Shown in pieces: positions 56,669 through 57,244 of a stretch of DNA of 64,000 nt (its first letter is position 1; every line of letters starts with the position of its first letter). Position numbers and translations under genes: made by a program. Source of the DNA: Escherichia coli. GTDB taxonomy: Bacteria > Pseudomonadota > Gammaproteobacteria > Enterobacterales > Enterobacteriaceae. The stretch is taken from NCBI RefSeq assembly GCF_003334385.1, contig NZ_QOWN01000004.1, one strand, 5' to 3'. Below the pieces are notes generated by a model. It saw only the letters and a program-made list of their open reading frames with translations. It made no database searches and was not told the DNA's origin.

Positions 56669-57244
56669 TTATATCAGTGCCCGTTTTCCGTCCTGAGCCC
56701 TGTATTCCGTCCACAGAAGTTGCCGCGTCACCCCCGGTCGCCGCATTTCGGTATCAATGTGAAGCCAGTCGGGCAGCACCGGTATCAGCACAGACGCTTT
56801 TTTCTCCGGGAATATAAGCGATTCAATGGCCTCCGGCGTCAGCGTTTCTGGCAGGGGCCATGGCGTTGATGATGCTTTGAAGCGAGCCAGCACCTCAAAG
56901 ACGGTGGAAGGGCTGATATTTAGTGTCAGCCCGATAGTCCTGTTGGACAGCTTCCGGTCGAATTTGAGCTGCAGGACTTTAAAACATGTTTCCATAGTGC
57001 TCCTCATAGTGCTCCTGGATTTCTTCTTTTTAGCTATTATGGCCTCCACAGACAACGAGACTCAGCAGTGGAAACCATGCAAAAAAGTGTTAATTCCCGG
57101 AGTGATCGGCAGGGTGCGAATCGCTGATCGGAAGATGCGAAACAGTGATCGACCACCATGCGAATCAGTGATCGACTGAGATGCGAAATGATGATCGATA
57201 GTGATGCGAATTGGTGATCGATTCAGATGCGATTATGCACGATT
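56669..57244 (-). mobile_element. IS21-family element remnant: IstA N-terminal fragment plus terminal repeat array
   Basis: ORF 56669-57055 encodes an HTH followed by ...PDWLHIDTEMRRPGVTRQLLWTEYRAQ..., resembling IS21-family IstA N-termini; upstream of its start are ~6 iterated 23-bp repeats, as in multi-repeat IS21 ends. The ORF is truncated after 128 codons. Confidence 0.55.
57114..57244. repeat. Array of ~6 tandem 22-24-bp repeats, consensus (G/C)ATGCGAAnnnGTGATCGAnn
   Basis: Copies begin at ~57114, 57134, 57158, 57180, 57203 and 57226; contiguous, without unique spacers. Confidence 0.6.

Follow-up and report, generated by a model that had tools for sequence, protein, structure and literature searches.

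An array of six two-part repeats in the Escherichia coli chromosome is very probably the left end of a decayed ISSso4-like IS21 element

What is a block of short direct repeats doing in an E. coli chromosome, beside a piece of a transposase gene and close to a group II intron? An earlier note on the 64-kb stretch of DNA analyzed here (the window) had described about six contiguous repeats without unique spacers, had read them either as the multi-repeat end of an IS21-family element or as iteron-like binding sites, and had judged six copies to be unusually many. We are highly confident that the array is the left end of a decayed ISSso4-like IS21 element, lying on the minus strand of the E. coli chromosome, and that its units would be sites for the transposase IstA.

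Several searches delimit the array. With Tandem Repeats Finder, an array of period 23 was detected at 57133-57232 (4.3 copies, score 93), along with a second one of this period that overlaps it at 57101-57174 and an alternative description of this DNA with period 46. A repeat-family search found TGCGAAnnnnTGATCG five times, with starts at 57115, 57136, 57159, 57182 and 57205 and spacings of 21, 23, 23 and 23 bp. When the 64-kb window was scanned for the exact pattern TGATCG-N6-ATGCGA, all four occurrences fell within the array at 23-bp steps; with two mismatches allowed, matches outside the array did not exceed the level of shuffled sequence. With the register set from the element terminus, on the minus strand and reading inward, the array at 57103-57239 consists of six head-to-tail units of 21-25 bp:

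57239-57215, minus strand: unit 1, TGCATAATCGCATCTGAATCGATCA, read as TGCATAA-TCGCATC-TGAA-TCGATCA; 25 bp
57214-57192, minus strand: unit 2, CCAATTCGCATCACTATCGATCA, read as CCAAT-TCGCATC-ACTA-TCGATCA; 23 bp
57191-57169, minus strand: unit 3, TCATTTCGCATCTCAGTCGATCA, read as TCATT-TCGCATC-TCAG-TCGATCA; 23 bp
57168-57146, minus strand: unit 4, CTGATTCGCATGGTGGTCGATCA, read as CTGAT-TCGCATG-GTGG-TCGATCA; 23 bp
57145-57125, minus strand: unit 5, CTGTTTCGCATCTTCCGATCA, read as CTGTT-TCGCATC-TT-CCGATCA; 21 bp
57124-57103, minus strand: unit 6, GCGATTCGCACCCTGCCGATCA, read as GCGAT-TCGCACC-CTG-CCGATCA; 22 bp

Each unit pairs two conserved half-sites, which on the minus strand read TCGCATC and TCGATCA, are separated by 2-4 nt and have their centers ~11 bp apart. 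The count of about six holds, as six complete units in the terminus register, and so does the absence of unique spacers between them. The array had been placed at 57114-57244, which is correct as to its location but not its limits, the last five of these positions (57240-57244) falling outside the element.

The nature of the array became apparent from its relatives. A sensitive search with 57060-57250 as query found it at ~75% identity in 387 E. coli genomes, in up to 33 places per genome; the chromosome of strain E21 alone has 11 matching places, so that elements of this six-unit end design have been able to multiply inside one genome. Three of the loci analyzed, L002, L003 and L004, each carry a complete istA (511 aa) and an istB that PGAP labels "IS21-like element ISSso4 family helper ATPase IstB". 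In a four-way alignment of these loci with the window, similarity starts exactly at TGCA, with the three flanks mutually unrelated, and extends from the TG at 57239 across the six units, an inner box and ~320 bp of istA. The L002 element is 2639 bp long, interrupts rhsC and has TG...CA termini. Target duplications of 5-7 bp accompany the relatives (AGTGGG for L002, GTAGC for L003 and GTTAACG for the Enterobacter element L007), whose right ends terminate in CA. Because homology starts exactly at the TG, and because intact TG...CA elements with target duplications exist, the array is the left terminal inverted repeat, with 57239 as its first base. The terminus, TG at 57239-57238 on the minus strand, is that of the left end of a 5'-TG...CA-3' element of the IS21 type, and the terminal direct repeats follow at the ~23-bp spacing of such elements (25, 23, 23, 23, 21 and 22 bp). 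This terminus-to-istA alignment with intact istA/istB elements vindicates the reading of the array as a multi-repeat IS21-family end.

Three further features lie inward of the array:

57089-57102, minus strand: inner conserved box CTCCGGGAATTAAC, directly inside the array
56993-57016, minus strand: 12-bp perfect tandem duplication, CATAGTGCTCCT twice (written on the plus strand), which doubles the istA ribosome-binding site and ATG
56675-56995, minus strand: istA 5' fragment, ~107 codons from METCFKVLQLKF..., covering the N-terminal DNA-binding region

The inner box is invariant in all five aligned elements except at one position in L005, from plasmid CP056609. Across elements that are 69-91% identical, it is the most invariant non-coding stretch, and it is not a copy of the repeat unit. 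ISSso4-family relatives have a related box, ACCGGGAACTTAAC, inside their right-end array (about 1100-1125 in L002), accompanied by ~15 more bases of similarity. The 12-bp duplication is private to the window, the 91% identical relative described below and all ISSso4-family copies showing alignment gaps there. With the duplicated Shine-Dalgarno sequence and ATG, the translation of the istA fragment reads MRSTMETCF....

The array lies ~105 bp upstream of the istA fragment, whose frame (56995 downward) begins METCFKVLQLKFDRKLSNRTIGL..., with the ribosome-binding site and ATG ~90 bp inward of the box. Its 108-residue translation (56995-56672) matches the NCBIfam model NF033546, transpos_IS21, with an E value of 6.7e-10 over profile positions 2-83, remaining below the cut-off of the model because it is only a fragment; IstA of the 91% relative and of the ISSso4 family scores ~284 bits, for a curated cut-off of 160. 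The identical stretch in E. coli 504239 is annotated by RefSeq as a pseudogene, "IS21 family transposase, incomplete, missing C-terminus". Model match, annotation and alignment to intact elements thus confirm that a truncated IstA-like N-terminus stands beside the repeats. ORF 56669-57055, to which this homology had been ascribed, does carry it, as the NCBIfam match shows, and consists of the istA fragment and a spurious TTG-initiated upstream extension. As a separate observation, the N-terminal HTH of IstA (residues 6-71) matches the NCBIfam IS66 TnpA model with an E value of 1.5e-15, better than it does the IS21 model. This preference was noted both for window 56672-56995 (minus strand) and for L002 1910-3445 (minus strand), and suggests a DNA-binding module common to IS21 IstA and IS66 TnpA.

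Homology to the 91% relative ends at 56675, though the relative continues, and homology to ISSso4-family elements is lost at ~56672-56680. The DDE domain is deleted from the window copy, which is identified as an istA by its homology. While istB is present in all intact relatives, it is absent here, which makes the window copy a remnant rather than a complete IS21 member, and none of the other parts of the element (the rest of istA, istB or the right end) occurs elsewhere in the window. The element is a dead remnant, a left end followed by ~107 istA codons, and the array is therefore a fossil without a transposition function of its own. A simple promoter and terminator scan of 56600-57400 returned nothing, including no sigma-70-like promoter in or near the array, and so lends no support to the idea of istA autoregulation.

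We then compared the remnant with the ISSso4 family. ISSso4-family elements (e.g., NZ_CM143892.1 309729-316906) share with the window the TG terminus, the six two-part units (phased at 21-23 bp), the box CTCCGGGAATTAAC and the istA that follows, and can be aligned with it over the whole end and the istA 5' region. The window nevertheless differs from them by its truncation after ~107 codons, by its private duplication and by belonging to a lineage known from remnants, as well as by its divergence: the array has no exact match among ISSso4-family ends, and identity to the PGAP-labelled copies is ~75% over the end and ~69-75% over 565 bp. By ISfinder convention, copies of the same IS or isoform share roughly 95% nucleotide identity or more. 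At the identities found here, the window element is neither ISSso4 nor an isoform of it, and by sequence comparison it is a distinct lineage, found as remnants only.

Closest to the window element, at 91% identity, is a decayed copy from E. coli plasmid CP056609, in which exactly one unit is missing. The loss of one whole unit from this copy indicates that copy number can drift by whole units. Searches of 5426 E. coli genomes, a plasmid collection and the GTDB representative genomes turned up no intact copy above 90% identity. With a 2.1-kb query built from the 91% relative, the best coverage in complete E. coli genomes was 67%, and the plasmid collection returned three records of one decayed 91% copy, one unit short. 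An exact 25-mer scan for the terminus in GTDB representatives gave one match, NZ_SZPQ01000059.1 (L014 1059-1128), a remnant truncated after three units. This contig is labelled Martelella alba and assigned to an alphaproteobacterium; its remnant could reflect horizontal transfer or assembly contamination.

How unusual are six units? IS21-family ends usually carry at least two repeats (PMC10122671, PMC11208146), and six is indeed above this usual two. Yet every full-length ISSso4-like relative examined has a six-unit left end, including the Salmonella (L006) and Enterobacter (L007) elements at ~69% identity, and the layout is kept among elements 69-75% identical in E. coli, Salmonella and Enterobacter. 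At their right end, ISSso4-family elements have three units, then the related inner box and further similarity to the left end. Other long-IstA IS21 members, at 33-48% protein identity, also have phased units of 21-23 bp between the left terminus and istA, but these are fewer than in the window and unrelated in sequence: ~3-4 in ISEc12, 3-4 in an ISPsy14-like element, 4 plus two inverted copies in ISAs29, 4-5 at 21-bp phasing in ISBmu3, and 4-5 in an Agrobacterium element. With six in all ISSso4-like relatives and 3-5 elsewhere, six is the norm of the subgroup and the top of a continuum, not an anomaly, and the judgment that it is unusually many stands only against the two of the literature. 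In ISEc12 (L008 1380-1425) and ISAs29 (L010 1365-1405), direct units are followed by inverted copies, which are not seen in ISSso4-like ends. IS21 proper (L003 5150-5440) and an Acinetobacter element yielded no repeat families at the settings used and were left out as comparators.

The conservation of the units bears on what may read them. Among the window, L002, L006 and L007, the share of invariant columns is 83% in half-site A (TCGATCA), 67% in half-site B and 43% in the spacers. The lower invariance of half-site B comes from a concerted difference between lineages: TTCGCA is found in nearly every unit of the window, L005 and L006 (one L006 unit has TTAGCA), whereas every unit of L002 and L007 has TTGGCA. 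Such a concerted change of units is expected if one protein reads them all.

A precedent is offered by IS5376, for which cryo-EM of IstA showed end repeats spaced 23 bp, in each of which two conserved blocks are set one turn of DNA apart; a single IstA monomer contacts one block with HTH-1 and the other with HTH-2, integration requires two repeats per end, and the wrapped ends form negatively supercoiled crossings (PMC10122671). The window end resembles those of IS5376 and IS21 in its 23-bp direct repeats, its two blocks one helical turn apart, its terminal CA and its tandem-HTH IstA (PMC10122671, PMC11208146; PDB 8b4h and 8q4d). Unlike the window, with six repeats on the left, and its relatives, with three on the right, IS5376 has two per end, and the repeat sequences are unrelated. 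IS21 has three repeats on the left and two on the right. ISSso4-family IstA aligns to IS5376 IstA (8b4h/8q4d) from residue 75 onward with an E value of ~1e-13, and the N-terminal HTH-1 region of ISSso4-type IstA gives no sequence alignment to it, so that the assignment of domains to half-sites rests on analogy.

By this analogy, each of the six 21-25-bp units would be one IstA binding site, the two HTH domains of a monomer matching its two half-sites, and the ~23-bp phasing would place successive monomers such that the end wraps into a supercoiled synaptic complex. If the element were intact, the catalytic IstA tetramer would form on the two sites nearest the terminus at each end and would cut at the terminal CA/TG. 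The four extra left-end sites may be accessory, acting in transposase recruitment, in left/right distinction or in damping istA expression. A bolder proposal, which we consider rather doubtful, is that the ISSso4-like subgroup evolved a long asymmetric end (six sites on the left, three on the right, and a shared inner box) whose extra left sites serve beyond the core tetramer, for example as an istA operator, a left/right discriminator or a Mu/Tn7-style target-immunity signal read by IstB; solo arrays could then be IstA sinks beside active relatives.

We further examined the locus itself. Across 166 complete E. coli genomes, the 721 bases at 56600-57320 are invariant (100% identity) and without exception chromosomal. 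Strain 504239 has the locus flanked by fecABCDE on one side and by a LacI-type regulator and PTS cluster on the other, amid other mobile-element fragments. One of these directly adjoins the terminus:

57240-57312, minus strand: 73-bp piece of an IS3-family (IS1203/IS629-like) transposase gene, forming the 5' exon for the group II intron

This fragment has 91-99% matches in 5653 E. coli records, annotated "IS3 family transposase" or "IS3-like element IS1203 family transposase", with the similarity stopping at 57312. It is the DNA abutted by the IS21-type end, context rather than part of the element. The group II intron starts with GTGCG at 57313, its identity confirmed by three Rfam matches; the array had been said to lie directly before its 5' end, which is inexact, since the 73 bp of IS3-family sequence intervene. 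By translation, the IS3 frame (...LKELERENR) is on the minus strand, so the intron would be antisense to the IS3 gene. The intron extends from 57313 to about 59240 on the plus strand, with Rfam matches to D1-D4 and domain V/VI. Its frame for a reverse transcriptase/maturase is broken into two ORFs that overlap (57892-58338 and 58242-59162) and are separate CDS in RefSeq, and the intron is probably frameshifted and inactive. A fragment of an IS110-family transposase pseudogene (59238-59561, minus strand), annotated by RefSeq at the identical locus, starts at the intron 3' end, and remnants of at least four different mobile elements are stacked in this region. Elsewhere in the window, the 120 bp at 63116-63235 are 89% identical to L005 5627-5746, adjoining an IS66-family transposase gene on plasmid CP056609, and are probably another IS fragment.

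Could the array have been retained because it still works as a solo end, whether by offering a decoy or a one-ended substrate to IstA that ISSso4-type elements supply in trans, or by regulating neighboring genes in cis? Its sites are intact and the locus is invariant over 721 bp in the 166 genomes; in addition, the right ends of the ISSso4 family hold both the TTCGCA and TTGGCA variants, which makes cross-recognition conceivable. However, identity across these genomes is what vertical inheritance in one E. coli lineage would give, the array is surrounded by dead mobile-element fragments (the IS3 piece, the intron with its split frame and the IS110 piece), and the first listed carrier genome has a single copy of it. 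We consider retained function very unlikely.

The locus also speaks to the suggestion of iterons, that is, replication-initiator sites at a plasmid- or phage-type origin. Direct ~22-bp units without unique spacers fit the form of plasmid iterons, but the array lacks an initiator gene or origin context and belongs to an IS terminus. It is chromosomal and identical in 166 genomes, and its neighbors are fecABCDE, hypothetical proteins, mobile-element fragments and LacI/PTS genes, with no rep gene nearby; nothing in this neighborhood is replication-like, which leaves the iteron reading unsupported. Moreover, in all seven loci inspected in detail the homologous array forms the end of an istA/istB element or of what remains of a truncated one, and homology starts exactly at the TG terminus. 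The iteron-like binding sites proposed earlier thus did not survive scrutiny, and we regard them as exceedingly improbable. The same low probability attaches to the end of a Tn7-like or Mu-like transposon with multiple TnsB or MuA sites: although such ends carry 3-4 phased ~22-bp transposase sites and IstA is structurally related to TnsB and MuA (PMC10122671), the full-length relatives are 2639 bp long, with only istA and istB between TG...CA ends flanked by target duplications, and it is the IS21 transposase model, rather than TnsB or MuA, that the ORF beside the array matches. The ends of phage Mu and of Tn7 (L1-L3/R1-R3; 3 + 4 TnsB sites) are alike in having several phased sites, left/right asymmetry and an AAA+ ATPase helper (PMC10122671), but these transposons use other transposase families and are much larger and cargo-bearing, so that the window element resembles them in its working without being a member.

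The unannotated repeat block in 166 E. coli chromosomes is thus read as a fossil IS21-type left end, and as such it matters little: it is a defunct element of a known, ordinary kind, whose six-site end is common to its intact relatives. What remains of mild interest is the asymmetry of six sites against three, and the conserved inner box, of the ISSso4-like subgroup. The role of extra terminal repeats in Tn7 elements is listed as an open question (PMC10122671). With six left and three right two-part putative IstA sites, compared with the two per end of the IS5376 structural work, the ISSso4-like subgroup could be a convenient natural system for studying accessory transposase sites in IS21-type elements.
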